From Myxococcales bacterium (lineage in GTDB: Bacteria > Myxococcota_A > Polyangia > Fen-1088), in NCBI GenBank assembly GCA_025350815.1, contig JANXXE010000218.1, forward strand, positions 19,574 to 83,573: a stretch of DNA of 64,000 nucleotides. The letters are read 5' to 3'. The position numbers and the translations under genes were made by a program. Position 1 is the stretch's first letter. Each line of letters starts with the position of its first letter. Under the pieces are notes generated by a model, which ran no database searches, was not told the DNA's origin, and saw only the letters and a list, made by a program, of their open reading frames with translations. Below, piece by piece: positions 486 to 58,542 of the stretch.

Positions 486-492
486 GTGTCGG

Positions 493-8641: not shown

Positions 8642-8695
8642 CTGACCACGCGTGCACCAACCCCAGACGTTGCGGGCGCCGCACCCGCGCGATCG

Positions 8696-11047: not shown

Positions 11048-12073
11048 CTACCGCCGCAGAGTCCGCCATCCGTGCCGGCGTCCCGACCTCCAGCGCTCGA
11101 CAACATCCTCGTAGACCTTGCGCAGACGCGCGGCGCTGACGTCGACCGAAAACGCGGCGCGGATCCGCTCGGGCCCGTTCGAGCGCCGGCCGGCCTCCAG
11201 CACGTCCTTGAGCGCGGCGGCCAGGGACTCGGGCTCGGGGCTGGCCACCAGACCGGGCGTGACGCCCTTCAGAACGTGCTCGACGTCACCAACCGGGACC
11301 GACACCACGGGCACGCCGCAGGCGACGGCCTCCTTGACGACGTTGGGCGAGCCCTCGTGCTGGCTGGTCAATAGCAGGCAGTCAGCGGCGTTCATGTGCA
11401 CCGGCATCAGCTCTGGCGGCACTTGCTCGATGGTCGCGAGACGGGCGGGAAGGCCCAGTTCCGCCAGACGGCGGACGGCCGCCTGGGCGCGGTCGAAACG
11501 CTTGATGGTGCGGTGCCGGGACGCCCCGAACAGCACGACGGTCTCCGCGGGATCCCAGCCAAGCTGCCTGCGGCATGCCGCCTTGTCGAGGGGGCGAAAG
11601 GCAGCCGTGTCGACACCCGCCGGAATGACGTACGCCCGCTGGCGGTCGCGTGCAAGCAGCAGCCCCTGCCGTAACTGTTCGGACCGCGCCACGATGGCGT
11701 CGGCGTTGGGCGCGGCCAGCTGAGAAAACACCGCTGCCAGCGCACCCACGACCTTTTCAACCGGCGGATCCCGCCGCGCCGGCCCCAGCAAGTCCGAGCC
11801 ACCAAAGGTCAGCACCAGCGGCACGGGGCAGCCGAGCGCCGAGGCGAACGCCCCGACGGAACCGAAGTAGACGTTGACCACGTCGGGGCGGCTGGCAGCG
11901 ACGTGGTCGCGAAAGGCGGCCCAGTCCTTGTGTGGCGTCCGCCGGTAGGCCGTGGCGTGCTCCTCCACATCCAGACCCAGCGCCCGCAGCGCCAGCACTT
12001 CACGCCGCACGAAGATGCCGGCGAAGGGTGAATCGGGCCGGGGCCAGATGTTCGACACAGCGAGGACTTTCAA
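11048..12073 (-). CDS. glycosyltransferase family 4 (GT-B)
   Basis: EGSPNVVKEAVACGVPVV matches the GT4 C-terminal E-x7-E region. The probable TTG start at 12073 (LKVLAVSNIWP) avoids a 44-nt overlap with the downstream gene; the track ORF starts at 12142. Confidence 0.7.
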   Translation of the reverse strand: MKVLAVSNIWPRPDSPFAGIFVRREVLALRALGLDVEEHATAYRRTPHKDWAAFRDHVAASRPDVVNVYFGSVGAFASALGCPVPLVLTFGGSDLLGPARRDPPVEKVVGALAAVFSQLAAPNADAIVARSEQLRQGLLLARDRQRAYVIPAGVDTAAFRPLDKAACRRQLGWDPAETVVLFGASRHRTIKRFDRAQAAVRRLAELGLPARLATIEQVPPELMPVHMNAADCLLLTSQHEGSPNVVKEAVACGVPVVSVPVGDVEHVLKGVTPGLVASPEPESLAAALKDVLEAGRRSNGPERIRAAFSVDVSAARLRKVYEDVVERWRSGRRHGWRTLRR

Positions 12074-12098: not shown

Positions 12099-12824
12099 TT
12101 ACGGCCGGTCGCGCAGCCGCAGAAAGTATTCCGCCAGGACAAGATCCGCTTCCGTGTCGATGTTGGCGGAACGCTCGACCGGCATGATGTGGCCCAGACA
12201 GCGCGCGCCCTTGAAGGAATTCTTGTTCATAAGAACGTCGCGACGGGTGGCGTACAGGGCGCCGTTGACCATGTACACCTTGGGCAGGCTTTGGCGCGGC
12301 GGGTTCTCGATCTCGGACGGCTCATAGTCCAGCAGCATCCCGTCGGCGAACTTCTTCATCTTTCGCGGGTGCCAGTTGTCGACGTCGATGACACTGATGA
12401 TGCCGTCGGCCCCCTCGGCCGCCAGACGTCCGAGCGCCGTGACGAGATCCTCGGCTGACCGCAGCGGCGTCGTCGGCTGCAGCATGGCAACGTAGTCATA
12501 CGGACTGCCGGTCAACGCCTCCATCTGTTTGACGGCGTGCTGAATGGTCGGGACCGCCAGCGCGCCATCCGTGGCCAGATCGGCCGGCCGCAGGAACGGC
12601 ACCTCGGCGCCCGCCTCAAGGGCAATGTCGCGGATGCGCGGATCGTCCGTCGACACGACGACGTTGGCGAACATGCCCGACTTCTGGGCGGCCTCGACGG
12701 TGTACGCCAGCAGCGGGCGGCCACCCAGTGGCCTGATGTTTTTGCCCGGCACCCCCTTGGAGCCGCCGCGCGCCGGGATCACCGCCAAATTGCGCGGGCG
12801 TCCCCCCGTCGGGTGGACCGTCAT
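12099..12824 (-). CDS. acylneuraminate (nonulosonic acid) cytidylyltransferase, NeuA/CTP_transf_3 family
   Basis: N-terminal AVIPARGGSKGVPGKNIRPLGGRPLLAYT is the canonical CMP-NeuAc/CMP-Kdo synthetase motif. Start ATGA-overlaps the NeuB-like gene. Confidence 0.8.
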   Translation of the reverse strand: MTVHPTGGRPRNLAVIPARGGSKGVPGKNIRPLGGRPLLAYTVEAAQKSGMFANVVVSTDDPRIRDIALEAGAEVPFLRPADLATDGALAVPTIQHAVKQMEALTGSPYDYVAMLQPTTPLRSAEDLVTALGRLAAEGADGIISVIDVDNWHPRKMKKFADGMLLDYEPSEIENPPRQSLPKVYMVNGALYATRRDVLMNKNSFKGARCLGHIMPVERSANIDTEADLVLAEYFLRLRDRP

Positions 12825-13780
12825 GACAGGGCCTTGTCCTCCCAGTTGTAGATGAAGCCGCCCGGTACGGGCGCCTGACTTGCAAAGCGGCCCCGGTAAT
12901 AGTCCCGGTTCAGCAATTCTTCAGGCGACAGCGCGCGCACGGGCGAGCCGCGCATGGCAGAAGCCTCGGGGATCTCGCGCGCCACGTAGTCGGCGATTTC
13001 GTTGCGCGGGGCGCGGGCCCAACGGACAAGCTCGGCCAGCTGGCCCGGATCGATCGACACCGGACCATCCCTGGTGAGGTCGGGCGGCAACACGCGAAAG
13101 TGCCGTTCCACCACATCCGCCCCCATGGCCAGCGCCCCGATGGACGCCTTCAGTCCGTCGCGGGCCACCAGGCTGTGGTCGGAAAATCCCACACTGGGCG
13201 TGAACTGGCGCAGCCATTCCAGACGGGCCAGATGCATCTGATCGAGGGGCGTGGGGTAAATGGTCACGCAGTGAAGGAAGGTGAAGTTGGTCGGCGCCAG
13301 CACCTTCGCCGCAGCCGCAATCTCCTCGTCGAAGGTGGCGCCGGTGGAAACATAGATGTGCTTGAACCGGCCGACCAATTGGCGCAGCAACGGCAAGCTG
13401 GCGCAGTCGTAGCTCGGTACCTTGATCTCATCGTAGCCCAGCTTGACCACGTCATCGACGGCGGCGCGGCTGAAGACCGACGTCAGGGCGCCCGTGCCCC
13501 AGCGCTTGCATTCCTCGCGGAAGAACGCCTCGTCGTCGACCGACAACTCCAGCGGCTTCAGTCGATCATATTCGGCCGCGTAGGGCCGCTTGATTGCTTT
13601 CTTCGCGCCGCCCTCGACGATCCCTTCTTCAAACCTTTCCCGGCGTGTCAGCTCGCGCACGCGGATGGTCTGCACCTTGGCGAAATCGGCGCCAGCCTCG
13701 GCGACCGCATGAATCATCTCGCTTAGCAGCGTGCGGCCGCCACCGTGGTTCTGACAAAGCTCTGCGATTACCTTGGCCAA
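12821..13780 (-). CDS. N-acetylneuraminate synthase family protein (NeuB-like nonulosonic acid synthase, no SAF domain)
   Basis: IAELCQNHGG ... AGADFAKVQ matches the IAEIGxNHNG/KFQ core of the NeuB TIM barrel. At 319 aa it is shorter than classical NeuB. Confidence 0.7.
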   Translation of the reverse strand: MAKVIAELCQNHGGGRTLLSEMIHAVAEAGADFAKVQTIRVRELTRRERFEEGIVEGGAKKAIKRPYAAEYDRLKPLELSVDDEAFFREECKRWGTGALTSVFSRAAVDDVVKLGYDEIKVPSYDCASLPLLRQLVGRFKHIYVSTGATFDEEIAAAAKVLAPTNFTFLHCVTIYPTPLDQMHLARLEWLRQFTPSVGFSDHSLVARDGLKASIGALAMGADVVERHFRVLPPDLTRDGPVSIDPGQLAELVRWARAPRNEIADYVAREIPEASAMRGSPVRALSPEELLNRDYYRGRFASQAPVPGGFIYNWEDKALS

Positions 13781-13882
13781 CGAGTTCCTCCCGCCTTGAC
13801 GGCCCCCTGCCCATACTACGATCCCGTGCCGCGGGGCAAGGCGCCGCGTCGACGAAATATGCTAAAAGGCGCTACGCTACCG

Positions 13883-15103
13883 ATGCGCATTCTGCTGCTG
13901 ACCCAGTATTTTCCGCCCGAGATCGGGGCGCCGCAGCGACGGCTGTCCGATCTGGTGACGCGCCTTGCGACCATGGGACACGAGTTGTCGGTGCTGACCG
14001 CCATGCCGAACTACCCAGGCGGCGTGGTGCAGGAGGCCTATCGTGGACGCGTTTTCGCGCGCGACGACTGGAACGGTGTGCCGGTCGCCCGTTCGTGGAT
14101 CCTGGCCAGCCCGCGGCCGGGCATGGCGCCCAAACTGGCGACGTATTTTTCGTTCACGCTGTCGTCGCTGGTTGCGGGCCTGCTGGATGGCACCCCCGTC
14201 GACATCGTACTGACGGAATCGCCGCCGCTGTTCTTGGGGCTGACGGGAATTGCACTGGCCCGGCGCAAACGCGCAGCCTTCGTGTTCAACGTCGCTGACC
14301 CATGGCCGAAAGCCGCGATCGAGCGCGGTATGCTGAAGCACCCGGCGGCGATAGCCGCAGCCACCGGCCTTGAAGAATGGATCTATTCGAAGGCCGCCCT
14401 GGTGCTGACGCAATCCGAATCCATGCAGCGGGACATTGCCTCGCGCACGGGCCATCCCCACGTCGTGCATTTTCCCAACGGCATCGATCTGAACCTTTTC
14501 GGGCCGGCAAAGGCGGATGCCGGAACGCTGGCCGAGCTGGGCCTGGCGGGCAAGTTCGTCGTTGGCTACGCGGGACTGCATGGTCCGGGACAGGGCCTGG
14601 ACGTGATTGTGAATGCGGCGGCCGGACTGGCCGACCTGCCGGATGTTTGTTTTGCGCTGTTCGGTGACGGGCCTGACAAAGATCGCCTGCAAAAGGCGGC
14701 GGCGCACCTGCCCAACGTGAAGTTTTTCCCGCCACGGCCGCCCAACACCATTCCGGCGCTGACGGCCGCCTGGTCCGCCGGCGCCGTAACCTTGCGCGAC
14801 GGTGCGTCGTTCGAAATGTGCGTGCCGTCGAAACTGTTCGAGGCCATGGGCTCCGCAATTCCCGTTGTGATGGCGGCCGACGGCGAAGCCGCCGACATCG
14901 TACGCGACTGCGGCTGCGGGCTGGCGGTTCGGGCGGGCGATGCCGCGGGCTTCGGCGCCGCCGTGCGGAAGCTGCACGCGGACGCGGGCCTGCGTCGCAA
15001 GCTCGGCGCGCAGGGGCGACAGGCCACGGAACAAAGGTACGATCGCCAGCGCATCGCCACCGAGGTAGAAAAGTTTCTCGAGCAAGCAAGGCTGGACGCG
15101 TGA
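13883..15103 (+). CDS. glycosyltransferase family 4 (WcaI-like)
   Basis: N-terminus MRILLLTQYFPPEIGAPQRRL. C-terminal GT4 motifs are present. An alternative ATG lies at 13859, and the 13745 track start is unlikely. The gene is divergent from the NeuB-like gene. Confidence 0.75.
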   Translation: MRILLLTQYFPPEIGAPQRRLSDLVTRLATMGHELSVLTAMPNYPGGVVQEAYRGRVFARDDWNGVPVARSWILASPRPGMAPKLATYFSFTLSSLVAGLLDGTPVDIVLTESPPLFLGLTGIALARRKRAAFVFNVADPWPKAAIERGMLKHPAAIAAATGLEEWIYSKAALVLTQSESMQRDIASRTGHPHVVHFPNGIDLNLFGPAKADAGTLAELGLAGKFVVGYAGLHGPGQGLDVIVNAAAGLADLPDVCFALFGDGPDKDRLQKAAAHLPNVKFFPPRPPNTIPALTAAWSAGAVTLRDGASFEMCVPSKLFEAMGSAIPVVMAADGEAADIVRDCGCGLAVRAGDAAGFGAAVRKLHADAGLRRKLGAQGRQATEQRYDRQRIATEVEKFLEQARLDA

Positions 15104-15768
15104 CCGACCGGACCGAGCGCTGGAAGCGCGTTGTCGATGTCGCGATCTCGGGCGCACTACTGATTGAACTTGCACCGCTGTTCGGTCTCATCGGCCTTGG
15201 TATCCGGGCCGAGACCCCAGGACCGATGTTCTACCGCTCGCGCCGCATGGGGCGGCACGGCGTGCCCTTCGACATGCTGAAGTTCCGATCGATGGTGGTC
15301 GCGGCGGCCGAAGCGGGCCCGATTACAAAGCCCGGCGACGCGCGCATCACGCGCCTTGGGGCGTGGCTGCGCCTGTTCAAGATGGACGAACTACCGCAAT
15401 TGCTGAATGTCTTTCGCGGCGACATGAGCCTGGTCGGCCCCCGGGCGGAGGACGTCCAGATCGTCGAGGACTTCTACACCGACGAACAACGACGGGCGCT
15501 GACTGTGCGGCCCGGAATGACGGGCCTCGGTCAGGTTCGATTCTTCCCCGACATGACGGGCGAAGTTCCCGCAGGCGCCGATCCGATGGCCTACTACCGG
15601 GATGTTCAGCTCAAGCGCAAGCTGGACGTCGATCTGGAATACGTGGACCGCGTGTCCGTGCCGCTGGATCTCGCGCTGCTGGCGAAGACGGCTTATTGCG
15701 TTCTGGTGAAGTCCTGGTGGATCCTTCTCAAAGATCCGCCGTCCGAGCTGCGACAATCCAGGACCTGA
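15100..15768 (+). CDS. sugar phosphotransferase (bacterial sugar transferase, PglC/WcaJ C-terminal type)
   Basis: GTG start at 15100 forms a GTGA overlap with the GT4 stop. One N-terminal TM, then the PF02397-like core ...FDMLKFRSM...DELPQLLNVFRGDMSLVGPRA. Confidence 0.8.
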   Translation: MTDRTERWKRVVDVAISGALLIELAPLFGLIGLGIRAETPGPMFYRSRRMGRHGVPFDMLKFRSMVVAAAEAGPITKPGDARITRLGAWLRLFKMDELPQLLNVFRGDMSLVGPRAEDVQIVEDFYTDEQRRALTVRPGMTGLGQVRFFPDMTGEVPAGADPMAYYRDVQLKRKLDVDLEYVDRVSVPLDLALLAKTAYCVLVKSWWILLKDPPSELRQSRT

Positions 15769-15793
15769 CACAAACAAAGGATTTGAAAGCGTG

Positions 15794-16963
15794 ATGGCCT
15801 ATCCCCGCAAACCCCCACGACCGATCCAACCTGCGCGCCAGCTTTTCCCGGACGAGGACATCGCCTTCATCCAGGGCGAGACCGCACGTCTGCTGCGCGA
15901 ACGCGTGACCCTGGGCCCCTGGGTCGAGCAGTTTGAACGTCTCGGCGCCGCGTCGGCCGGAACCAAGCATGGCCTGGCCGTGAACAACTGCACGACGGCG
16001 CTGGAAATCATTCTGCGGTCCATCGGCGTCGGCCCTGGCGACGAGGTCGTGGTCCCACCGCAGACCTTCGTGGCCACGGCATTTGCCGTGCTTCACGCCG
16101 GTGCACGCCCCACGTTCTGCGAGATCAACCCCAAGACGCATTGTCTGGACCCGAAGAGTCTGGCGGCCACCATCACGCCAAAGACGCGCGCCGCAATCCT
16201 GGTCCACATGGGGGGCCTGGTCACGCCGGACTTGCCCGAGATTGAACGCGTCTGCAAGGCGCGCGGCATCGCGCTGGTCGAGGATTGCGCGCACGCGCAC
16301 GGCTCCCAGAAAGGCGGCCGACCGGCCGGGTCCATCGGCGTGGCCGGCGCGTTCAGCTACTACGCGACGAAGGTCCTGACCGCCGGTGAAGGCGGCCTTA
16401 TCACCACCAACGACGACAAGCTGGCCGAGGTGCTGCGCTGCTACCAGGCCCGCGGGCAGGACCTGTCCGTGCACGACGAAGAAGTTTTCATTCGCCCCGG
16501 GCGCAGTTGCCGCATGACTGCGTTTTCCGGTCTGTGCGGCGTCACCCAGTACAAACGCCTGGACGAGTTCGTCGCCCGCCGCAACCGAACAGCCGGTCTT
16601 TACGATCACGCCCTGCAAGCAGGCGCCCCGGCGGTCGAGCTTCTGCCCGTGCCGCAAGACACCAGGCACAGCTACTGGAAGTACACGATGAACCTTCCGA
16701 AAGGCGTCTCGCGACTGGACCTGCAGGCGCTGCTGGCCAAGGATTATGGCGTGCCCCTGACGTGGTCCTACTGGCCGCCCGTGCACCTGATGCCCGTGAT
16801 GAAGGACCTGTGTGGCGGCAAGCCGGGCGATCTTCCTATCACCGAGGACATCATGAGCCGCAACGTCAGTCTGCCCATGCACGCTGCGCTGGACGACAAC
16901 GACGCCACCTATATCGCCGACGCGTTCGTGGACGCCTTCGGTCGGATGCGGGGCGCCCGGTGA
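15794..16963 (+). CDS. DegT/DnrJ/EryC1/StrS family PLP-dependent sugar aminotransferase (no. 1)
   Basis: Whole-length resemblance to DegT-family enzymes, including the ...SFYATKVLTAGEGG... region around the PLP lysine. Confidence 0.8.
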   Translation: MAYPRKPPRPIQPARQLFPDEDIAFIQGETARLLRERVTLGPWVEQFERLGAASAGTKHGLAVNNCTTALEIILRSIGVGPGDEVVVPPQTFVATAFAVLHAGARPTFCEINPKTHCLDPKSLAATITPKTRAAILVHMGGLVTPDLPEIERVCKARGIALVEDCAHAHGSQKGGRPAGSIGVAGAFSYYATKVLTAGEGGLITTNDDKLAEVLRCYQARGQDLSVHDEEVFIRPGRSCRMTAFSGLCGVTQYKRLDEFVARRNRTAGLYDHALQAGAPAVELLPVPQDTRHSYWKYTMNLPKGVSRLDLQALLAKDYGVPLTWSYWPPVHLMPVMKDLCGGKPGDLPITEDIMSRNVSLPMHAALDDNDATYIADAFVDAFGRMRGAR

Positions 16964-17877
16964 CAGCGACACCCACTGCCCGCGTCGCCGTGACCGGCTG
17001 CCACGGTTACGTCGGCGGCCACCTGGTAGAAAAGCTGCGCGCCGCCGGCCACGATGTGGTCGGCATCGATCACCGACCACAAGGGGACGTGCCCGTGCCG
17101 CAGTTCGCGCGCATGGAACTGGCCGACCCCGTTGCGGTCGAGACCTGCGCGAAGGCGATCGAAGGGTGCACCGCCGTATTTCACCTCGCATCCCGGCAGC
17201 CTTTCAGCTGGGATTTGCATCCTTTCGTGCGCGGCAACGTCATGCGCACTGCCCACTTGCTCGAGGCGATGCGTGTGGCGAAGGTGCCCCGCCTCATCCA
17301 TTCGTCCACGGTCGCGGTCTACGGCCGCCCCGAAACCCTACCGCTGCGCGAGAACACGCCGCTACATCCAGAAAACCCCTATGAGGTCACGAAGGCCCAG
17401 GCCGAGTCCCTTGCGGGCCTGTACGCCAGCAAGGCGGGACTCAATGTCGCCATTCTTCGCTATCCCAGCGTCTACGGCGGCCGGGCTCGCTTCGGCGCGA
17501 TGTACACCTTCATCGACGCAACCTTGCGTGGCGCCCCGATTCGTCTGTTTGCCAAGGGCACCGCCCGTCGCGATCTGGTTCACGTCTTCGACGTCGTCGC
17601 CGCCAACCTGCTGGCGCTGCAGCACGCGCAGGCGCAGCCAGTCGCCACCTACAATATTGCCAGCGGCCAGGCACCCATGAGCCACGAATTGGTCGAACTG
17701 ATCTTTGACGTCCTTGGCCAGAAGACAACGGTCGAGATGGCCGAGGATCCCAACTGGCGCTCGCAGGATCTGGTCGTTGACATCGGCCGGGCGCGTACCG
17801 AGCTCGGCTTTACCCCGATGCCCTTGGCCGAAGGCATCGCGGAGCTGGGGGCGGCCGTCCGCCAGGAACGAAAATAG
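16960..17877 (+). CDS. NAD-dependent epimerase/dehydratase (SDR family)
   Basis: GTG at 16960 forms a GTGA overlap with the DegT stop. N-terminal VAVTGCHGYVGGHL Rossmann motif. SDR extended-family layout. Confidence 0.75.
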   Translation: MTATPTARVAVTGCHGYVGGHLVEKLRAAGHDVVGIDHRPQGDVPVPQFARMELADPVAVETCAKAIEGCTAVFHLASRQPFSWDLHPFVRGNVMRTAHLLEAMRVAKVPRLIHSSTVAVYGRPETLPLRENTPLHPENPYEVTKAQAESLAGLYASKAGLNVAILRYPSVYGGRARFGAMYTFIDATLRGAPIRLFAKGTARRDLVHVFDVVAANLLALQHAQAQPVATYNIASGQAPMSHELVELIFDVLGQKTTVEMAEDPNWRSQDLVVDIGRARTELGFTPMPLAEGIAELGAAVRQERK

Positions 17878-17885
17878 CCCGCGGA

Positions 17886-18637
17886 TGAAGATCGTCGCCC
17901 ACCAGCCTGAGTACATTCCCTGGCTCGGCTATTTCGCCAAGCTCAGCGTGGCGGATGTCTTCTTCTTTTCGGACCACCTCCAGTACGCGATCAAGGATTT
18001 CCAGAACCGGAACAACATCCTTCAGGGCGGCGGCAAGCAGATGCTGTCCATTCCGGTGCTGACCAAGGGGCGCGTCGACCAGGCCATCCGCGACGTCGAG
18101 ATCGAGGCCAACACGCCCTGGGCGCGCAAGCACATGCTGACCCTGCGCCACGCCTATCACCGGCACCCGCACTTTTCGCGCTACGCACCCCGCCTGGAGG
18201 AAATCTACGCCCGCCGTTGGGACAGGCTGTGCGAACTCAACGTCACGCTGATCAAGCAGATCGCCGAATGGTTGGACATCAAGGTCCCGATGCGCCTGTC
18301 GTCCGAGCTTTCGCTGGTCGAGCACAAGACGCGGTTGCTGATCGAGATGTGCGAAAAGTGTCCGGCCGACACCTTCGTCTCGGGCCTGGGCGCCGCCGCT
18401 TACGTCGACCCTGCGCTGTTCGCCGAAAAACACCTCAATCATCTTTTCTTCCGATTCACCCACCCGACCTATCCCCAGAAGGGGGCGACGTCGGGCTTCG
18501 TGTCCCATCTGTCCGCGCTGGATCTGCTGTTCAACTGCGGTCCGGACGCCGCCCTGCTGTTGCAGCAAGCCGTCGCTGCGTCGACCTTGACGGCGGAGGT
18601 TCCGTCGGCACCCGTGACCGCCGATCCGGCGCCCTGA
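17886..18637 (+). CDS. WbqC-like family protein
   Basis: N-terminus MKIVAHQPEYIPWLGYFAKL... is typical of WbqC-family proteins found in O-antigen clusters. The ATG at 17886 follows the upstream stop. Confidence 0.65.
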
Positions 18638-19797
18638 TGGAACGCCTTGACGCCAGTTCTGAAGAAGGGCCGTACCACGCCGCGTTCGGCAATCTGCTCG
18701 CCGGCCGGCCGAGTGGGCTGCGCGGCTCTGGCGAATCTATCGATGGCTTCGGGGCGTGGACCGGCGAACATCGTCTGGCGCCCTACGCCGCTCACCTGGC
18801 CATCACCTGTGACCCGATAGTCGCTGCCGCCCTCAAGCCGGCGCTGCGAAAGGCGGCCATCAAGGATCTATTGCACGCGACGCCGACCGGCCGGCTGCTC
18901 CGCGCCCTGGCCGACAACGGGGTCAGGCCCATCGTCTTCAAGGGGCTGGGCGTCGGCCATCTATACTACCCGGAACCCTATCTACGCCCGCTCGGTGATC
19001 TCGACATCTTGTTTCGACCCGCAGACATCCCGGCCATGCTTCGGACCTGCCTGGCACTGGGCTACCGCCACCAGAATTCCGACCCCGTGGTCGTCGCGTC
19101 GTATACCGAGGCCCACTACAACATTCCGCTGGTCCATCGCGAGTTCGGCTTGCTAGAGGCCCACCATCGTCTGTGGGGCGACTGCGAAAACGCGTTCACC
19201 GACGCTGTATTCGCGCGTTGTCGGCCCGTCTCGATCCTGGGCGCCCTGGGCGAACGCCCGACCGGGGTTGACCTGTTCATCATGCTGTCCGTGCACTTTG
19301 GCATCAGCAACATCGGCAGCAGCTGGATGTGGCTCGCCGATCTGGTCCTCATCGGTCGCACCCTGGATGCAGCCGAGTGGGCGGACCTTGTGGCCACGGC
19401 CAATCGCCATGGCCTGCAATTGTTTGTCGCCCTCGCTCTTGGCGCCCTACGGAAACTGTGGAACGTGACCTTCCCTGCGCAGGTCGACCCGGCAGAGGAC
19501 AGGCTACGTGCGACATTGCGCCCCCCCGAACAACTGGCCTTCAACCGGGCGCTCGCGCTGGTGGGCAGCCGCCGCCTGGGAAAGCACTTTCTAATCGTCG
19601 CGCGCCGCCTCAGCCACCGGCCCGTTCGCGCCGCCAGCCATCGGTTCGAGTGGCTGGTGTGCCATCCGGGCGTCGTCGCCGATGAGCTAGGGGTCTCGTC
19701 AGCGTCGCCGTGGTTTCCACTTTACCGTCTCAAGCACCCCCTGTCGCGCCTGACAAGGGCCGCCGACTCGATCTATAAGGCTGTGACCCGCACATGA
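18637..19797 (+). CDS. uncharacterised nucleotidyltransferase-family protein (NTP_transf_5-like)
   Basis: ATGA overlap with the WbqC stop. It carries a GDLDILF motif resembling the nucleotidyltransferase G-x-D-x-D signature. Function is unknown. Confidence 0.4.
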   Translation: MERLDASSEEGPYHAAFGNLLAGRPSGLRGSGESIDGFGAWTGEHRLAPYAAHLAITCDPIVAAALKPALRKAAIKDLLHATPTGRLLRALADNGVRPIVFKGLGVGHLYYPEPYLRPLGDLDILFRPADIPAMLRTCLALGYRHQNSDPVVVASYTEAHYNIPLVHREFGLLEAHHRLWGDCENAFTDAVFARCRPVSILGALGERPTGVDLFIMLSVHFGISNIGSSWMWLADLVLIGRTLDAAEWADLVATANRHGLQLFVALALGALRKLWNVTFPAQVDPAEDRLRATLRPPEQLAFNRALALVGSRRLGKHFLIVARRLSHRPVRAASHRFEWLVCHPGVVADELGVSSASPWFPLYRLKHPLSRLTRAADSIYKAVTRT

Positions 19798-21005
19798 CCG
19801 TCCCGTTCTTTCGACCTTCGATTACTGAACTAGAAATCGAAGAGGTGCTTGCCAGCCTGCGCTCTGGCTGGCTGACGACCGGCCCCCGCGTAAAAGAGTT
19901 CGAGCGCCGCTTTGCCGAGACCGTCGGGGCCAAACACGCGATCGCATTGAATTCCTGCACGGCGGCCTTGCATCTGGCGCTTGAAGCGGTGGGGGTGGGG
20001 CGCGGCGACGGCGTGCTCGTACCGACGATGACCTTCGCCGCCACCGCCGAGGTCGTGCGCTATTTCGACGCCGTGCCCATCTTCGTCGATTGCGACCCCG
20101 TCACCTTGTGCCCCGATCCCACTTCCATCCGCGCGGCCCTTGAGGCCCTGAACGCTGGCCGGACCTGGCCCGGCGTCCCGCCCGGCACAAAGCCTCCCCG
20201 CGTTTTGGTGACCATGCACTACGGCGGCCTGGTCGGGGCGATGGGTGAATACCGCCGCCTGGCGGACGATTTCAACCTGCAGCTGATCGAGGATGCCGCC
20301 CACACCATGCCGGCCGCTTTTCGGGCCGACGCAACGGCGCCCTGGGAAGCGGTCGGTGGCGCCAGCCTGGTCACGTGTTTTTCCTTCTACGCGAACAAGT
20401 GCATCACGACGGGCGAAGGCGGCATGGCCACCACCAATGACGATGCGGTGGCGGCGCGCATGCGCTTGATGTCCCTGCACGGCATGGATCGCGACGCCTG
20501 GAAGCGCTACACCGATCAGGGCTCGTGGTACTACGAGGTCGTCGCACCCGGCTTCAAGTACAACATGACCGATGTGGCGGCGGCCCTGGGTCTGGCCCAG
20601 CTTGGGCGCCATCAGACCTTGTGGGCCGAGCGCAGACAGGTCGCCGGCCGACTGACCGCCGCCCTTGCCGACCTTCCGCTCGAACTACCGTTCGAGCCGC
20701 CCGACCGACAGCACTCGTGGCACCTGTACTCCGTCAAGCTCAGATTGAACGAGCTGCGCATCGGCCGCGATCAGTTCCTCGATGCGCTGAAGGCCAGGGG
20801 CATCGCCCACTCTGTGCACTGGCAGCCCCTGCACATGATGCCCTACTACCGCGAGCGCTACGCCTTGCGCGCCGAGGATTTTCCCGTCGCCGCATCCCTG
20901 TGGCCGCGGCTTGCATCGCTGCCCATCTTCGCCGGCATGACAACCGACGAACTGGCCGAGGTGACATCGACCGTGGCAGCGTTACTGCGCGCCAACCTGC
21001 GCTGA
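19794..21005 (+). CDS. DegT/DnrJ/EryC1/StrS family aminotransferase (no. 2)
   Basis: ATGA overlap with the upstream gene. DegT-like over its full length (FRPSITELEIEEV...; FYANKCITTGEGG). Confidence 0.8.
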   Translation: MTVPFFRPSITELEIEEVLASLRSGWLTTGPRVKEFERRFAETVGAKHAIALNSCTAALHLALEAVGVGRGDGVLVPTMTFAATAEVVRYFDAVPIFVDCDPVTLCPDPTSIRAALEALNAGRTWPGVPPGTKPPRVLVTMHYGGLVGAMGEYRRLADDFNLQLIEDAAHTMPAAFRADATAPWEAVGGASLVTCFSFYANKCITTGEGGMATTNDDAVAARMRLMSLHGMDRDAWKRYTDQGSWYYEVVAPGFKYNMTDVAAALGLAQLGRHQTLWAERRQVAGRLTAALADLPLELPFEPPDRQHSWHLYSVKLRLNELRIGRDQFLDALKARGIAHSVHWQPLHMMPYYRERYALRAEDFPVAASLWPRLASLPIFAGMTTDELAEVTSTVAALLRANLR

Positions 21006-22091
21006 AGCAAGGCGCCTGACCGTCGCGATGATCCGCTCGGCCGCTTTGCCGTCCCACAACTCGGGGATTCCGCCCTTCTTCCAGGCCCCGGCGAAGACTC
21101 GCTCCAGTGCCGGCGCGATGGCGGCGGGGTTGGTGCCGATGATTTCGTTGGTGCCGACCAGTGCCGTCTCCGGCCGTTCCGTGTTGTCTCGCAAGGTCAG
21201 ACACGGCACACCGAGGTACGTCGTTTCTTCCTGAATGCCGCCCGAATCCGTCAGCACCGCGCGCGCGTTCTTGACCAGGTACATGAACTCGAAATACCCC
21301 ATCGGCTCGACCTGGTGAATGTTCGACCAACCCGGCATCTGCGCCAGGGCCTTGCGCGTGCGCGGATGCACCGGAAAGATCACCGGCGCCCCCCGGACGG
21401 CGGCCGACACTTCATCGAGCAACCTCCGCAGCGTAACCGGGACGTCCACATTCGCCGGCCGGTGCAACGTGACGACGGCGTAGCCTCCAGCCGCGAGCCC
21501 CAGGTCGCCCCACACGGCCGGAGGCACAAGCCGCGGCAGGCTGAACACCAGACTGTCGATCATCGTGTTGCCCACGAAGTGGATGCGCTCCTCGGACGTA
21601 CCCGAGCGCCGAAGCTGTTCGTTCGCGTGCCGCGAGGTCGTGAAAAACTGGTCGGCCAGCGCATCGGTGACCATCCGGTTGATCTCCTCCGGCATGGTCA
21701 TGTCGAACGATCGAATACCGGCCTCGACGTGGGCCACGGCGGTGTTCATCTTCTTGGCGACGATGGTGCAGGCCATCGTGGACGTCACATCGCCGACAAC
21801 CAGCAGCAGATCGCACGGATTCGCCGCCAGGTCCTTCTCGAACCGCACCATGATCTGCGCGGTCTGCTCGGCCTGGCTGCCCGATCCCACCTCAAGATTC
21901 GCCTGCGGCGGCGGAATGCCCAGTTGGTCGAAGAACTGTCCGCTCATGTTGGCGTCGTAGTGCTGCCCGGTGTGCACCAGCCTCACCGAAATGTCTGCGC
22001 CATCGCTCGCATTGACGCGCCGGATCTCCCGCATGAGCGGAGCGATCTTCATGAAGTTCGGCCGGGCGCCGGCCACCAGGGTCAGCCGCAT
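20982..22091 (-). CDS. UDP-N-acetylglucosamine 2-epimerase (WecB/NeuC family)
   Basis: LVAGARPNFMKIAPL ... HTGQHYD ... HVEAGIRSFD ... DSGGIQEE are canonical Epimerase_2 motifs. The gene converges on DegT no. 2 with a 24-nt overlap. Confidence 0.85.
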   Translation of the reverse strand: MRLTLVAGARPNFMKIAPLMREIRRVNASDGADISVRLVHTGQHYDANMSGQFFDQLGIPPPQANLEVGSGSQAEQTAQIMVRFEKDLAANPCDLLLVVGDVTSTMACTIVAKKMNTAVAHVEAGIRSFDMTMPEEINRMVTDALADQFFTTSRHANEQLRRSGTSEERIHFVGNTMIDSLVFSLPRLVPPAVWGDLGLAAGGYAVVTLHRPANVDVPVTLRRLLDEVSAAVRGAPVIFPVHPRTRKALAQMPGWSNIHQVEPMGYFEFMYLVKNARAVLTDSGGIQEETTYLGVPCLTLRDNTERPETALVGTNEIIGTNPAAIAPALERVFAGAWKKGGIPELWDGKAAERIIATVRRLASAQVGAQ

Positions 22092-22114
22092 CGCAGTTCC
22101 TGTTCGACCGGCAG

Positions 22115-22711
22115 CTAGAACATGCGTTCGTCGACGACCAGGACATCACCTGGGAAGATCGCGACGTTGGGTGCCCGGCCCTCGCTAATGTCAGCGACGG
22201 GATAGGATCGGCTGACCACCGATCCCTTGTCCTCGCGCCTCAGCGTGACCTTGTTCTTCGCCGCGATTCCAGTGAATCCGCCCGCGGCCGCAATGGCATC
22301 GATGATGGTCATGTTCGAGAAGTACACCACCGCACCGGGTTTCAGCACCTGCCCCAGCACCGAGACCTTGCGGCTGTTCCATTCATGCACGGTCACGGTG
22401 ACCTGAGGATTCTTGATGAATCCGTCCTTTAATTTCTCCGTGATCATCGCCTGAACCTCGCCGCTGGTCATGCCCACCACCTTGATGCGACCTATCAACG
22501 GGTAGTCCACCATACCGTCGCCCGCGATCCGGTACAGCCCAGTCAGATCGCCCTCAAGGAAGACCCGGGTCTCAAAAACGTCGTCCACGCCCAGTCGCTC
22601 ATCGGGCGCCAGCGTCATGACCTCCGCGGGTACCGGCGCGGGGATCTGCCGCGAGGCGCATCCCACCTGCGCGATAAACAGCACGACGGGCCAGGCCCTC
22701 AAGCGAGTCAT
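22115..22711 (-). CDS. polysaccharide export protein (Wza/GumB-like, Poly_export + SLBB)
   Basis: A lipoprotein-like signal (…IAQVGCAS) is followed by ...GDGMVDYPLIGRIKVVGMTSGEVQAMITEKL... and a PGDVLVV motif typical of Wza-family exporters. The start is taken at the internal Met at 22711. Confidence 0.7.
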   Translation of the reverse strand: MTRLRAWPVVLFIAQVGCASRQIPAPVPAEVMTLAPDERLGVDDVFETRVFLEGDLTGLYRIAGDGMVDYPLIGRIKVVGMTSGEVQAMITEKLKDGFIKNPQVTVTVHEWNSRKVSVLGQVLKPGAVVYFSNMTIIDAIAAAGGFTGIAAKNKVTLRREDKGSVVSRSYPVADISEGRAPNVAIFPGDVLVVDERMF

Positions 22712-22774
22712 TGCCCCGGATTGTAGTCCGTCCAGCCAGTCGTCGCAATGTCGCGGCAATGTCGCGGGGCTCCT

Positions 22775-23497
22775 CTATTGGGGGTCTGAGTCTCCACGAC
22801 GGGGCGGCTTCAGGCGCGACAGCAAGACCTCCGCCAGGACAAAGTCGACTTCCTCGTCGATATCCACGGCCCGATCCCGCGGGACGACCACCCCGGCGAC
22901 ACGTTCGCCATACAAAGAATTCCGGTCGAGGACTGCGCGCGCCGTCGCGTAGACAGAGCCCGAGCGCACGTAGGCGGGGGCAAGATCCTGGCCTCGCGCG
23001 CCCTCAGTCTCGGCGGCCTGTGCGAAATAGGGCTCCAGCCAGTTTCCCCGCAACCTCTTCAGCTTCGCCGGGTGCACGGGGCCAACCGGCACAATGGTGA
23101 CCGCGGAGTGGGCCCCCGCCGCCACGGCCTCCAGACACGAGTCGATGTCCGCCGAGCTAACCAGGGGGTTGGTGGCCTGCACAATGGCCGTGGCGTCGAA
23201 GGGTCCCTCGCCTGCGGCCTCCAGCGTCCTGACCGCGTGCCGAACGGCGTCGATGCTGGGGCTGTCGTCGCGGGCCAGTTCCGGCGGACGCGCGAGCGCC
23301 AGGCGTGGGTCAATCGCCCGCACGATCGCCAGGACCTCGGGGTCCTCGCTTGAGACCACACAACGGGTCGCCAGGCGCGCGCCCATGGCCGCGTCGACAG
23401 CGTAGCTCAGCAGGGGTCGCCCGAGCAGTAACCGAACATTCTTTCGCGGCAAGCGCTTGGATCCACCCCGCGCCGGGATAACGACTAGGGAGGTCAC
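22775..23497 (-). CDS. acylneuraminate cytidylyltransferase family protein (second NeuA-like paralog)
   Basis: LVVIPARGGSKRLPRKNVRLLLGRPLLSYAV is the CTP_transf_3 motif. It is distinct from the 12099..12824 copy. Confidence 0.75.
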   Translation of the reverse strand: MTSLVVIPARGGSKRLPRKNVRLLLGRPLLSYAVDAAMGARLATRCVVSSEDPEVLAIVRAIDPRLALARPPELARDDSPSIDAVRHAVRTLEAAGEGPFDATAIVQATNPLVSSADIDSCLEAVAAGAHSAVTIVPVGPVHPAKLKRLRGNWLEPYFAQAAETEGARGQDLAPAYVRSGSVYATARAVLDRNSLYGERVAGVVVPRDRAVDIDEEVDFVLAEVLLSRLKPPRRGDSDPQ

Positions 23498-23612
23498 GAA
23501 ACGAATCCTTTTGGCGGTGGCTCAGGCGCTTCGGTACGCACCAAGATGGCGAATTATACGCGAACCGTCCCCAGGTCCCGAGTCCAATCTGTTATCGTTC
23601 CGTCGGTCCGAT

Positions 23613-24275
23613 ATGAATGTCCTGGTCCTGGCGGCTCACCCGGATGACGAAACCCTGGGTGCTGGCGGTGCGATGGCCCACGCCATTGAGCGCGGCGACC
23701 AGGTGCACGTAATCGTCGCCTGCGGCTCCGCACGTGTGGACGTTGTCGATGATGGTCGATTCGCAGCCCAGAAAGCCTCAGAACTTGAGACCGCCATGCG
23801 CTCACTCGGTGTCACCTTCGAGGCGCTGGGCTTGCCCGACCAAAAGCTAGACGTCGTTCCCCTGGTCGATCTTGCTCGCGCCATCGAAAACACCATGGCT
23901 AGATTCCGCCCGGCTACGGTGCTTACGCACTTCGCTGGAGACGTAAACCAGGACCACCGGCGCGTGGCGGAGGCGACGCTAATCGCTTGTCGATGCGTTC
24001 CAGGCTCCCCCGTTCGCAGGCTAGCCTCGTACTTCGTGCCGTCCAGCACCGATTGGGGGGACCCGCAAGTCGGTTTCGTTCCCAACGCATTCGAAATCCT
24101 CGAAGAATCCCATGTCTCGGCCAAGCTGGCGGCGATGCGCTGCTATGCTTCCGAACTGAGGCCGGCGCCGCATCCCCGTTCGGAAAGGGGGATTCGAGCA
24201 GCGTTGGAGCATTTCGGCTCGCGTGTCGGCGCCGCCTATGCCGAACCTTTTGTGATCCTTCGCGAGTTGCTCTGA
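23613..24275 (+). CDS. PIG-L/LmbE family N-acetylglucosaminyl deacetylase
   Basis: MNVLVLAAHPDDETLGAGG contains the PIG-L AHPDDE motif. The ATG at 23613 sits inside the longer track ORF. Confidence 0.75.
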   Translation: MNVLVLAAHPDDETLGAGGAMAHAIERGDQVHVIVACGSARVDVVDDGRFAAQKASELETAMRSLGVTFEALGLPDQKLDVVPLVDLARAIENTMARFRPATVLTHFAGDVNQDHRRVAEATLIACRCVPGSPVRRLASYFVPSSTDWGDPQVGFVPNAFEILEESHVSAKLAAMRCYASELRPAPHPRSERGIRAALEHFGSRVGAAYAEPFVILRELL

Positions 24276-24390
24276 GGCCTGCAATCCCCACCGCCGACAC
24301 GGAAGCATTGGACAGACAAGGGCCGGACGTGGAACGATCGAAGGCGATGCTACAGTCTGTCGAACGGCGCCGACGGGATCCTCCCGGCGC

Positions 24391-26367
24391 ATGAGCTCCC
24401 GGTTCTACTGGAAGTCAGCGCAGCTGGCCGTCGACGCCCTGGTCTGCGTCATGGCGTTCCTGGCCGCATACCTGATTCGTTTCGAGGGCATTTTGTCGGC
24501 CCCGACGCTCAAGCAGATGGCGCTGCTGATGCCCTACCTGGTGTTCGCGCGCCTGCTGTGCAATCAGATCCTGGGCGTCTATCGGATCGCCTGGCGTTAC
24601 GTGGGTCTGCGCGACCTGCGCACCTTCGTGATCGCTACCTCTCCAGCGACCGCGTTCTTTCTGATCCTACGTTTCGGCGTGGCCCCAAACACGGTTCTTT
24701 TTGGTCTTTGGTTGGACGTCTTTCGCATTCCCCTGTCGGTGGTCGCTCTTGAAGGCATGCTTTTCTTCCTGGGAACCGTCGGGGCACGGGTCTTGCGGCG
24801 CATCACGCTGGACGTTCAGCGAGCTAAGGTCAGTAGTGGCCCGAAGAAGGTCCAGCAAAAGCCGATTCTTCTTATCGGCGCCGGGCGAGCCGGCGTCATC
24901 GTCGCGCGGGAAATTCGTTCGCGGCCCGACATGGGCCTCAAGATCGTGGGTTTCATCGACGACGACCCGATGAAATTGGGACAGATTATCGACGGTCTTC
25001 AGGTCCTCGGACCGACCGCCGACTTGCCGCGACTGGCACGCCTGCACCACCTTGACCACGTGGTCATCTCAATCGCCAGCATTCCAGGTGTGGACATGCG
25101 CCGGATTCTCGCAGTGTGCGAGTCAATACCCATTCGTCCCCAGGTGGTGCCGGGTATTTATGAGTTGGTGGAAGGTAGCGTCAGCATCAACCGTATACGC
25201 GACGTGGAGTTCGAGGATCTGCTGGGCCGCTCCCCGGTGAACCTGGACACGGAGGGTGTCGCCGCGTTCTTGGGCGGTAGCCGCATCGTCGTGACCGGTG
25301 CTGGCGGGTCGATTGGCTCTGAGATGTGCCGCCAGGTGTGTCGATTCGGCCCCGCGTCGCTTATTCTCGTCGAGCGCTACGAGAACAATCTTTTCGAAAT
25401 CGAACGGGAGCTGCGCTCAAGCTACCCCAACTTGCAGATCATTCCCTGCGTTGCCGATATCACCGATGCCCCACGAATGGCGTCGATATTCGAGACGCAG
25501 GCGCCCCAGGTGGTGATCCACGCGGCCGCCCACAAACACGTTCCGATGATGGAAAGTAATCCGTCCGAAGCCGTCAAGAACAATGTCCGCGGCACCCGAA
25601 TGCTGGCCGAGTTGGCGGACCGACACAAGGCCGCCGTGTTCGTCATGATTTCGACGGACAAGGCCGTCCGGCCGAAGTCCGTGATGGGCGCGTCCAAGCG
25701 CATGGCCGAACTATACGTGCAGTCGCTGGCTCAGAACTCAGGCACGCGCTTTATGACGGTCCGTTTTGGCAACGTTCTCGGAAGCGCAGGCAGTGTGATT
25801 CCTATTTTCAAGAAGCAGATCGCCGCCGGCGGCCCCATCACCGTCACACACCCCGAGATGAAGCGCTACTTTATGACCATTCCGGAGGCCGCACAGTTGG
25901 TGTTGCAAGCGGCCTCCATGGGTTCAGGGGGGGAGATCTATGTGCTCGACATGGGCGAGCCCGTGAAGATCGTCTCGCTGGCTGAGGAACTAATCCGCCT
26001 GAGCGGCCTCAAGCCTTACGACGACATCGAGATTACTTTTACGGGCGTTCGGCCGGGCGAGAAACTGTTCGAGGAGATTTCCCTGGATGACGAGAATCTC
26101 ACCAAGACCCAGCACGCGAAGATCTACGTAGGCAAGAACAGACCTCTCGCGGCCGAGGGCGTGGCGGAGAAGGTACGTCTGTGCGAACAGCTCATCGACG
26201 AGCCCGATGCGACGACGGTCCGAGCGACCCTGATAGACCTGGTACTGGAAGACCGAGCCGAAGGAGAGCAGCGGACAGCTCAGGTGGGTGAAGATCAGGA
26301 AGGCGCGTCAGGCTCCAGCGATCGAGGCTTGACGACAGCGCTTCGAAAGCCCGAGCTCCTGCACTAG
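24391..26367 (+). CDS. membrane-anchored UDP-GlcNAc 4,6-dehydratase (PglF/CapD/WbpM/FlaA1 family)
   Basis: Four N-terminal TM helices, then two Rossmann motifs (ILLIGAGRAGVIV and IVVTGAGGSIGSE) and the CapD core. Confidence 0.85.
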   Translation: MSSRFYWKSAQLAVDALVCVMAFLAAYLIRFEGILSAPTLKQMALLMPYLVFARLLCNQILGVYRIAWRYVGLRDLRTFVIATSPATAFFLILRFGVAPNTVLFGLWLDVFRIPLSVVALEGMLFFLGTVGARVLRRITLDVQRAKVSSGPKKVQQKPILLIGAGRAGVIVAREIRSRPDMGLKIVGFIDDDPMKLGQIIDGLQVLGPTADLPRLARLHHLDHVVISIASIPGVDMRRILAVCESIPIRPQVVPGIYELVEGSVSINRIRDVEFEDLLGRSPVNLDTEGVAAFLGGSRIVVTGAGGSIGSEMCRQVCRFGPASLILVERYENNLFEIERELRSSYPNLQIIPCVADITDAPRMASIFETQAPQVVIHAAAHKHVPMMESNPSEAVKNNVRGTRMLAELADRHKAAVFVMISTDKAVRPKSVMGASKRMAELYVQSLAQNSGTRFMTVRFGNVLGSAGSVIPIFKKQIAAGGPITVTHPEMKRYFMTIPEAAQLVLQAASMGSGGEIYVLDMGEPVKIVSLAEELIRLSGLKPYDDIEITFTGVRPGEKLFEEISLDDENLTKTQHAKIYVGKNRPLAAEGVAEKVRLCEQLIDEPDATTVRATLIDLVLEDRAEGEQRTAQVGEDQEGASGSSDRGLTTALRKPELLH

Positions 26368-37322: not shown

Positions 37323-37341
37323 GCCACGGCCCCAGGCTTTG

Positions 37342-40671: not shown

Positions 40672-40839
40672 TGGATGCCCGGGAGAATGGTGCGACTACC
40701 TTTTGAAGTAAAGGCATTTTGCGGACGGGTCGCACTGCTTTTGCTTGACCGCCATCGTTGCGCGAACGATAGATCGGCCTCGGACATGGCTGCCTCAGAG
40801 CAATTGCCCCCGGCGGGCATTTCAAAAGTCGTTTCGAAC

Positions 40840-58530: not shown

Positions 58531-58542
58531 GACGCACCACAG

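Follow-up and report, generated by a model that had tools for sequence, protein, structure and literature searches.

The interval 12099-26367 of a 64,000-nucleotide stretch from a Myxococcales bacterium (GenBank assembly GCA_025350815.1, contig JANXXE010000218.1, positions 19,574 to 83,573 of the forward strand; hereafter the window) carries a short NeuB-family synthase, two cytidylyltransferases and a group of amino-sugar genes, which a first-pass annotation had combined into a single pathway to a 5,7-diamino nonulosonic acid (NulO). On balance, the interval probably contains parts of two independent nucleotide-sugar modules in one Wzx/Wzy-type exopolysaccharide locus, not one nonulosonic acid pathway. 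The short NeuB most likely belongs to a distinct, uncharacterised and widespread cassette, and the adjoining amino-sugar genes to a separate priming-sugar pathway, which probably makes the first sugar of the polymer.

All gene classes named by the first-pass annotation are present in the interval with strong Pfam matches, whose E-values (1e-17 to 1e-118) exclude a chance pattern. The gene models (Table 1) are backed by third-position GC (GC3) profiles, which mark a single coding frame per stretch in this DNA of about 65% GC, and by independent gene calls on sequence-identical Logan contigs. The inventory was incomplete in its coordinates: it lacked a small PglC-like phosphoglycosyl transferase (PGT), a family 4 glycosyltransferase (GT4) and a Wza-like exporter, and it listed one CTP_transf_3 cytidylyltransferase where two are found. 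Its placement in an exopolysaccharide locus agrees with the flanks, which hold Wzy-like proteins, a Wzz/tyrosine-kinase protein, TPR proteins and further glycosyltransferases (GTs). The plus-strand operon is translationally coupled, with overlaps of 1-4 bp at 15100/15103, 16960/16963, 18637 and 19794/19797, and it does include the WbqC-family and NTP_transf_5 genes, both unexplained, as had been observed.

The synthase has 319 aa and no SAF domain, as first described. It belongs to the NeuB family (PF03102) but scores only 148 bits on the NeuB model TIGR03569 (cut-off 399.65) and 119 on PseI (cut-off 340); a canonical NeuB+SAF control (L171) reaches 297 bits on TIGR03569. The SAF domain PF08666, which in canonical NeuB contributes Arg314 to the sugar site, gave no match in the short NeuB nor in its 120 best homologues. 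In the AlphaFold2 (AF2) model (pLDDT 94.9), the C-terminus is formed by helices and a short hairpin, and the SAF position is occupied in this clade by the invariant C-terminal motif ELLNRDYYRGRFA...YNWE, its members also carrying a 10-residue insertion (EEG..IKRPY). The mean column identity among 34 diverse members, from bacteria and archaea, is 67%. The proposal that a short, SAF-less NeuB marks a variant is borne out.

When aligned to NeuB of Neisseria meningitidis (NmNeuB), the short NeuB keeps the equivalents of E25, K53, Q55, K129, S132, S154, Y186, S213, H215, E234, H236 and D247, which we take to be phosphoenolpyruvate-binding, metal-binding and catalytic positions from the NmNeuB structure, and differs by the substitution of E134 by Asp and N184 by Thr. 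Many arginines are invariant in the clade (R47, R49, R65, R73, R292, R296 and R298). Structure comparison of the model places NeuB, PseI and SpsE first (E-values of 1e-19 to 1e-14), followed by the KDO8P and DAHP synthases (about 1e-10). A pseudogene or chance open reading frame (ORF) is ruled out by the intact catalytic residues, the family column identity and the GC3 signal. SAF-less NeuB proteins have been noticed before in environmental bacteria with no function assigned, and the same study describes the Glu134-to-Asp change in sialic acid synthases of eukaryotes and archaea (PMC8208679).

Database matches to the short NeuB at E-values up to 1e-5 exceed 2,400 proteins, with lengths of about 317 aa, and the 120 best consist of the NeuB domain alone. 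A scan of 185,579 genomes, one per species, recovered the clade from 239, nearly all of them metagenome-assembled, from Anaerolineae, Bacteroidota, Planctomycetota, Nitrospinota, the candidate phyla radiation (CPR/Patescibacteria), Thaumarchaeota, Asgard and Woesearchaeota. A cultured carrier is Pseudotenacibaculum sp. MALMAid0570 (L034); tblastn against 72,556 plasmids found no member (best identity 30%). Canonical NeuB+SAF proteins are about 24-34% identical to the clade. In one Anaerolineae operon (L006, 8001-12624), the short-NeuB cassette stands side by side with a canonical NeuB+SAF and NeuC pair, an arrangement that argues against redundancy of the two synthases.

The cytidylyltransferase next to the short NeuB (CTP_transf_3 no. 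1) overlaps it by 4 bp, a sign of translational coupling, and its orthologues lie within 5 kb of the short NeuB in 45 of 46 loci. It scores 160 bits on PseF (cut-off 206) and at most 46 bits on the KdsB models (cut-offs 155-281). Among known structures it matches CMP-N-acetylneuraminic acid (CMP-Neu5Ac) and CMP-deaminoneuraminic acid (CMP-Kdn) synthetases over its full length (1e-33 to 5e-23), while KdsB is matched over the N-terminus only (3e-9); the CMP-Kdn synthetase of Prymnesium parvum stands at 5e-23, and CMP-Neu5Ac synthetases match better. The suggested activation as a CMP-sugar is upheld by this coupling of an intact NeuB-family synthase to a CMP-NulO-type cytidylyltransferase and, as far as sequence can tell, a CMP-activated ulosonic acid is likely made. 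The identity of the pair as KdsA and KdsB, the enzymes of 3-deoxy-D-manno-octulosonic acid (Kdo) synthesis, which the first-pass annotation had named as the alternative, was rejected by the model scores and structure matches, the synthase being a PF03102 member nearer to NeuB than to KDO8P synthase.

The second cytidylyltransferase (CTP_transf_3 no. 2) is 39% identical to the first and scores 117 bits on the same PseF model. Its nearest relatives (about 50% identical, from Planctomycetia) lie inside canonical PglF-NeuB+SAF-NeuC-2Hacid_dh-CTP3 clusters, and no synthase or hydrolysing epimerase that would match it was found in the window. Fusions of the cytidylyltransferase occur in other loci. 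In L004 (10957-12423) it is joined to an S-adenosylmethionine (SAM)-dependent methyltransferase, a sign that the CMP-sugar, or else its precursor, may be methylated; the methyltransferase of the window is not homologous to the cassette methyltransferase, as no tblastn match was found for it in 84 loci. In Thaumarchaeota, the cytidylyltransferase beside the short NeuB carries a fused domain that resembles LarA, a nickel-pincer 2-hydroxyacid racemase (L037, 10946-12910; also in L035, L047, L048, L052, L057 and L076).

The conserved neighbourhood of the short NeuB was determined by tblastn of window and locus proteins against 84 loci, the count being limited to the 46 with flanks of 5 kb or more in both directions, and a gene being counted when found within 5 kb of the short NeuB. 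CTP_transf_3 is present in 98% of these loci and a CBS-fused nucleotide-sugar 6-dehydrogenase in 89%, followed by a D-2-hydroxyacid dehydrogenase (2-Hacid_dh, 46%), a TagB/TagF-like GT (43%), a HAD_2 hydrolase (33%), a ManC-like nucleotidyltransferase (26%) and a methyltransferase (22%). Meanwhile, NeuB+SAF (9%), NeuC-type epimerase (7%), DegT (4%), PGT (4%) and PIG-L (2%) close the list, and the precomputed Pfam tables of individual loci give the same pattern. The CBS-dehydrogenase is closest to the UDP-ManNAc/TDP-Glc 6-dehydrogenases CalS8, 4r16 and Cap5O, not to AlgD, and its CBS domain resembles that of the KpsF/GutQ arabinose-5-phosphate isomerases. In Thaumarchaeota loci, HAD and ManC are replaced by a xylose-isomerase-like TIM protein between the dehydrogenase and the short NeuB.

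The source genome holds these partners too, at some distance from the synthase. ManC, HAD and two TagB-like GTs lie at window 3-4045, and an identical public contig (L087) places the CBS-dehydrogenase (571 aa), then the full ManC, directly upstream of window position 1; the ManC-like gene has 369 aa in full, its start being upstream of position 1 and its final 160 codons in the window. The ulosonic acid module is split across the locus, reaching beyond 12099-26367. The HAD is 32-39% identical to the HAD genes beside the short NeuB in L003, L005 and L008, and TagB-like GT 1, the candidate CMP-ulosonic acid transferase, is 32% identical to the GT beside the cassette in Nitrosopumilales (L037). 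Neither a 2-hydroxyacid dehydrogenase nor a second NeuB was found in the window search. In other loci, 2-Hacid_dh is phosphoglycerate-dehydrogenase-like and lies directly upstream of or beside CTP_transf_3 (L031, 8992-9957; L171, 5985-6968; L172, 8048-9004), and this adjacency occurs in short-NeuB cassettes and canonical NeuB+SAF clusters alike.

Regarding the amino-sugar genes, the epimerase had been called NeuC/WecB-type, and the WecB half of that call holds: it scores 287 bits on TIGR00236 (WecB, cut-off 210) and 63 bits on NeuC (cut-off 236). Four control epimerases beside NeuB+SAF in other loci give 326-430 bits on NeuC and 56-114 on WecB. A WecB-type enzyme would make UDP-N-acetylmannosamine (UDP-ManNAc). 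The absence of an N-acetyltransferase was rightly noted, as a search of the 64-kb window turned up neither a Hexapep, PglD or GNAT gene nor a PseG-like hydrolase or NeuC; with PglD as the tblastn query, only the N-terminal part of PglF was matched, and the window has no PglD_N gene. DegT 1 is below every equivalog cut-off (PseC 211, DesI 185 and LegC 179 bits), and DegT 2 scores 332 bits on PseC (cut-off 423) and 288 on ArnB. On the LegC model (cut-off 420) the two DegTs reach 179 and 223 bits, and on LegB (cut-off 475) the short-chain dehydrogenase/reductase (SDR) reaches 101. This SDR has the SSTVAVYG and YxxxK motifs without the TDE dehydratase motif, and is therefore of the epimerase or ketoreductase type; its identity as a LegB-type dehydratase was rejected on this ground.

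The PglF-type dehydratase, DegT and small Bac_transf PGT form a trio that is kept in two relatives. In L004, the closest relative, whose short NeuB is 67% identical, the order is PGT-DegT-SDR-WbqC-PIG-L-DegT with PglF convergent, and the NTP_transf_5 homologue, which stands beside WbqC in the window, lies directly upstream of the short NeuB. In L088, where WbqC is 53% identical, the order is PIG-L-PGT-DegT-SDR-WbqC...DegT-PglF, and there is no NeuB within 9 kb. By class, this set is similar to the bacillosamine and AAT-Gal (2-acetamido-4-amino-2,4,6-trideoxygalactose) modules PglF-PglE-PglD-PglC, with which it shares the membrane PglF-type dehydratase, a DegT and the small PglC-like PGT. It differs from the bacillosamine module in the lack of PglD and in a second DegT, a GalE-like SDR, PIG-L, WbqC and NTP_transf_5, all of them further conserved members.

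These results bear on the single-pathway proposal of the first-pass annotation. Worked out step by step, PglF and DegT would give a 4-amino-6-deoxy intermediate, WbqC (with PIG-L) would act in place of the acetyltransferase, an epimerase/hydrolase would free the hexose, the short NeuB would condense it with phosphoenolpyruvate (PEP), and CTP_transf_3 would activate the resulting legionaminic (Leg)- or pseudaminic (Pse)-like acid. The locus does resemble the Leg/Pse pathways in uniting a PglF/PseB-family dehydratase, DegT, a NeuB-family synthase and a PseF-like cytidylyltransferase, all genes being together both in the window and in L004. In addition, WbqC, SDR, DegT and PIG-L occur inside a canonical NeuB+SAF/NeuC/CTP3 cluster (L090), which keeps this proposal alive at low probability; NeuB is near WbqC in 5 of 35 WbqC loci, CTP_transf_3 no. 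2 is of a type seen in PglF-NeuB+SAF-NeuC clusters, and a deacetylase and a formyltransferase are reported inside the Leg cluster of Ca. Kuenenia (bioRxiv 10.64898/2026.04.20.719630).

However, the window departs from the Leg/Pse pathways in having no LegH/PseH, LegG or PseG within its 64 kb, in its non-hydrolysing epimerase, and in a synthase and two cytidylyltransferases that all fall below the equivalog cut-offs, so that the equation of this gene set with a 5,7-diamino nonulosonic acid pathway does not hold. The short NeuB is 50-67% identical to homologues in loci without amino-sugar genes, and the rarity of DegT, PGT and PIG-L around the clade speaks against DegT, PglF, SDR, PIG-L and the epimerase feeding the synthase. 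Moreover, the amino-sugar set adjoins its own initiating transferase and recurs away from NeuB, as seen in L088. The single pathway is thus improbable. The comparative data essentially place the aminotransferases and dehydratase in an unrelated nucleotide-sugar pathway, as had been considered, although one that appears UDP-linked, as L004 and L088 suggest, not dTDP-linked.

In the favoured arrangement of two modules, the first (module A) would comprise the short NeuB and CTP_transf_3 no. 1, together with the CBS-dehydrogenase beyond the window edge, ManC, HAD and the two TagB-like GTs. The short NeuB would condense PEP with an aldose into a 3-deoxy-2-ulosonic acid, CTP_transf_3 no. 1 would activate it as a CMP-sugar, and a TagB-like GT would transfer it to the growing repeat unit. 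The aldose would not be a 2,4-diamino sugar but an ordinary, probably anionic precursor. Most economically, it would be a sugar phosphate such as mannose-6-phosphate, with dephosphorylation by the HAD giving a Kdn-type acid, and a Kdn-like acid is the most economical guess for the product. This reading follows from the lack of conserved amino-sugar or sugar-releasing genes around the clade, with the invariant arginines, Asp134 and the Kdn-9-phosphate (Kdn-9-P) precedent as weaker points for an anionic substrate. Eukaryotic sialic acid synthases use sugar phosphates.

Precedent comes from the established Kdn-9-P route (PMC6200933), described in Bacteroides thetaiotaomicron and P. parvum with a Kdn-9-P synthase, a Kdn-9-P phosphatase and a CMP-Kdn synthetase. 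By enzyme class module A is alike, with its NeuB-family synthase, its CTP_transf_3, a HAD that may be a phosphatase, and no need for amino-sugar enzymes. It differs in its HAD, which is a C1-cap HAD_2 protein, not KdsC-like C0, restricted to a third of the loci and linked to ManC, as well as in the CBS-dehydrogenase, 2-Hacid_dh and TagB-like GTs, for which the Kdn pathway has no counterpart.

The transferases and the dehydrogenase can be compared to the O-glycan of Tannerella forsythia, where the founders of the BFO_1060 family are required for the terminal Pse/Leg derivative, which is linked to N-acetylmannosaminuronic acid (ManNAcA) (PMC5420450). As with BFO_1060/Tanf_01245, a TagB-like GT-B protein, two TagB-like GTs stand beside cassette genes in the window, with a weak family match and an R(L/V)HP(K/R) sequence that recalls the family's HP motif; their scores (58 and 53 bits) are far under the cut-off of 200, so they are distant relatives only. 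The CBS-dehydrogenase probably makes a uronic acid acceptor. One example would be ManNAcA derived from the product of WecB, since the locus has both a WecB and a dehydrogenase resembling WecC, which could supply such an acceptor as in the Tannerella glycan. Such an acceptor would mirror the Pse/Leg-to-ManNAcA linkage and would give a simple reason for the link of the dehydrogenase to the cassette.

Alternatively, the dehydrogenase could work in the ulosonic acid pathway itself, either supplying a hexuronic acid (such as ManNAcA or mannuronic acid, ManA) to the short NeuB or oxidising the terminal CH2OH of the CMP-ulosonic acid to an undescribed dicarboxylic "nonulosaric" acid. Its proximity to the short NeuB in most loci, across phyla, would agree with this, as would the many invariant arginines, which fit an anionic substrate, and 2-Hacid_dh and the thaumarchaeal LarA-like domain would have an alpha-hydroxy-carboxylate to act on only given a second carboxylate; a literature search found no mention of nonulosaric or octulosaric acids, the only compound that turned up being the plant heptulosaric acid Dha. 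Nevertheless, 2-Hacid_dh is also directly upstream of CTP_transf_3 in canonical NeuB+SAF clusters with no adjacent dehydrogenase and is thus not specific, for which reason 2-Hacid_dh and LarA were downgraded as signs of a dicarboxylic product. No conserved enzyme was seen in these loci to free a uronic acid from its nucleotide, and the NulO-ManNAcA linkage of Tannerella explains the co-occurrence by known chemistry, leaving this explanation unlikely. Still less probable is a product of another chain length (C7 or C8, like Kdo or 3-deoxy-arabino-heptulosonic acid, DAH) from a pentose or tetrose phosphate, since the NeuB-type structures outrank the KDO8P and DAHP synthases and KdsB matches only the N-terminus of the cytidylyltransferase, even though SAF, an N-acetyl hexosamine binding aid in NeuB, is replaced by a different C-terminal element, KdsC, KdsA and KdsB have formal counterparts in the HAD, the synthase and the cytidylyltransferase, and the CBS domain is KpsF/GutQ-like.

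The second module of the favoured arrangement (module B) would be formed by PglF, the two DegTs, the GalE-like SDR, PIG-L, WbqC and the PglC-like transferase. The constant adjacency to this small transferase points to a UDP-2,4-diamino-2,4,6-trideoxyhexose-type priming sugar, which module B would make and load on undecaprenyl phosphate. An exchange of N-acyl groups may stand in for the missing acetyltransferase: PIG-L would remove the acetyl group and WbqC, as an ATP-dependent BshC-like ligase, would attach another carboxylic or amino acid to the sugar amine.

WbqC had no match among NCBIfam models, nor in a PDB sequence search, and literature mentions of it are restricted to gene lists, with no function. 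Its AF2 model is confident (pLDDT 93.7), and the predicted fold appears to resemble BshC and class I aminoacyl-tRNA synthetases, a likeness to be taken with caution, as Foldseek gave nothing significant. Of the 35 metagenomic WbqC loci that span 6 kb or more, 25 also encode PIG-L, which is the immediate neighbour of WbqC in 23; DegT occurs in 14, an SDR in 9 and NeuB in 5. The best NCBIfam match of PIG-L is BshB1; its start codon is uncertain, the Pfam match starting at residue 56. NTP_transf_5 had no NCBIfam or PDB match.

The pairing of PIG-L with a predicted BshC/class I aminoacyl-tRNA synthetase-like fold, near a GT4, recalls bacillithiol and mycothiol synthesis (BshA/B/C; MshA/B/C/D). Locus L089 (GT4-GNAT-PIG-L-WbqC) is parallel to MshA/D/B/C, its GNAT standing as MshD does. 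Unlike BshC, WbqC is half the size, with no detectable sequence similarity to it, and its context is nucleotide-sugar and polysaccharide, not thiol, synthesis. The presence of WbqC in the canonical cluster L090 would make it a general amino-sugar tailoring enzyme. In L088 (2172-5370), an FkbH-like protein, an acyl carrier protein, a GNAT and a glyoxalase lie directly upstream of PIG-L-PGT-DegT-SDR-WbqC, a hint that the N-acyl group there may be of the glyceryl type.

Several points weigh against the arrangement in two modules. Regarding module A, Kdn is no more than an economical guess; the HAD, found in a third of the loci and mostly with ManC, may be a nucleotide-sugar phosphomutase and not an ulosonate phosphatase, and the near-universal CBS-dehydrogenase might act within the ulosonic acid pathway and not on the acceptor sugar. 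The two closest relatives, the window and L004, both hold module B in the same locus, and WbqC, PIG-L, SDR and DegT are found inside canonical NeuB+SAF clusters (L090; 5 of 35 loci), so the link of WbqC-type tailoring to diamino-NulOs is real elsewhere. CTP_transf_3 no. 2 is of the NulO type yet stands without a synthase partner, and the arrangement assigns no role to DegT 1, the SDR and NTP_transf_5. To our knowledge, the ligase activity of BshC itself has never been reconstituted in vitro. The view is of 64 kb, and the rest of the genome could encode an acetyltransferase or a hydrolysing epimerase.

The clade of SAF-less NeuB proteins now has a defined gene cassette and a wide range of hosts, including ammonia-oxidising archaea and CPR bacteria. 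A bolder and tentative extension is that the cassette makes a CMP-ulosonic acid other than the neuraminic (Neu), Leg, Pse, Kdn and Kdo types, for example one built from an anionic aldose or a dicarboxylic nonulosaric acid, displayed on the surfaces of uncultured Thaumarchaeota, Asgard, CPR, Anaerolineae and Bacteroidota and, separately, that WbqC is a BshC-like ATP-dependent ligase swapping N-acyl groups with PIG-L. If the product is new, the set of sialic-acid-like sugars grows, and it would explain unassigned keto-acid signals in environmental glycomics. The WbqC/PIG-L pairing offers a hypothesis on the biochemistry of a Pfam family often seen in O-antigen and capsule loci, and may explain N-aminoacyl or unusual N-acyl amino sugars made without an acyl-CoA transferase. 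For annotation, a list of NeuB, NeuA, DegT and dehydratase is not enough for a Leg/Pse call.

Table 1. Genes of the two proposed modules and their neighbours, in window positions.
Feature	Position	Strand	Evidence
ManC-like sugar-1-phosphate nucleotidyltransferase, 3' end	3..485	+	ManC_GMP_beta-helix 2e-12; tblastn match to cassette ManC
HAD_2-type hydrolase, 231 aa, phosphatase or phosphomutase	493..1188	+	HAD_2 3.3e-14; phosphoglycolate-phosphatase-like by NCBIfam
TagB/TagF-like GT-B glycosyltransferase 1	1185..2633	+	weak Glyphos_transf; BFO_1060 family GT 58 bits
TagB/TagF-like GT-B glycosyltransferase 2	2675..4045	+	paralogue, 44% identical to GT 1
SAM-dependent methyltransferase, 253 aa, possible sugar O-methylase	5488..6249	-	Methyltransf_23 on L087 gene call
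GT4, last gene of the short NeuB-CTP_transf_3-GT4 operon	11048..12073	-	
CTP_transf_3 no. 1 (predicted CMP-ulosonic acid synthetase)	12099..12824	-	Pfam 1.5e-23
Short NeuB-family synthase, 319 aa, without SAF	12821..13780	-	Pfam NeuB 1.9e-46
WcaI-like GT4, opens the plus-strand operon	13883..15103	+	
Small PglC-like polyprenyl-phosphate phosphoglycosyl transferase (initiating enzyme)	15100..15768	+	Bac_transf 3.8e-51
DegT aminotransferase 1	15791..16963	+	Pfam 2.4e-98
GalE-like SDR	16960..17877	+	Epimerase 2.9e-47
WbqC-family protein, 250 aa	17885..18637	+	Pfam 5.5e-68
NTP_transf_5 protein, 386 aa	18637..19797	+	Pfam 4.6e-33
DegT aminotransferase 2 (PseC/ArnB/PglE-like)	19794..21005	+	Pfam 1.6e-106
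WecB-type non-hydrolysing UDP-GlcNAc 2-epimerase	20982..22091	-	Epimerase_2 2.1e-96
Wza/EpsE-like polysaccharide export protein	22115..22759	-	
CTP_transf_3 no. 2, orphan cytidylyltransferase	22775..23497	-	
PIG-L/BshB-like de-N-acetylase	23457..24275	+	Pfam 9e-24
PglF-type membrane-anchored UDP-GlcNAc 4,6-dehydratase	24391..26367	+	Polysacc_synt_2 8.9e-118 + CoA_binding_3

Other genes of the window lie around this set. Two Wzy_C proteins (O-antigen ligase/polymerase-like) are encoded on the minus strand at 4048-5487 and 6260-8695, the second being fused to TPR repeats, and no Wzx flippase was recognised in the window. The 444-aa product of an ORF at 26386-27720 matched no known family. The minus strand at 28566-29984 encodes a GltG-like protein whose C-terminal domain is of the AgmX/PglI type (107 bits against a cut-off of 40), and which adjoins large TPR proteins at 31465-37391. 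These genes point to a source resembling Myxococcota, yet a flagellar FlhA gene is located at 40636-42942. Finally, a third DegT-family aminotransferase is isolated at 58531-59700 (+), beside proline biosynthesis genes and distant from the exopolysaccharide locus.

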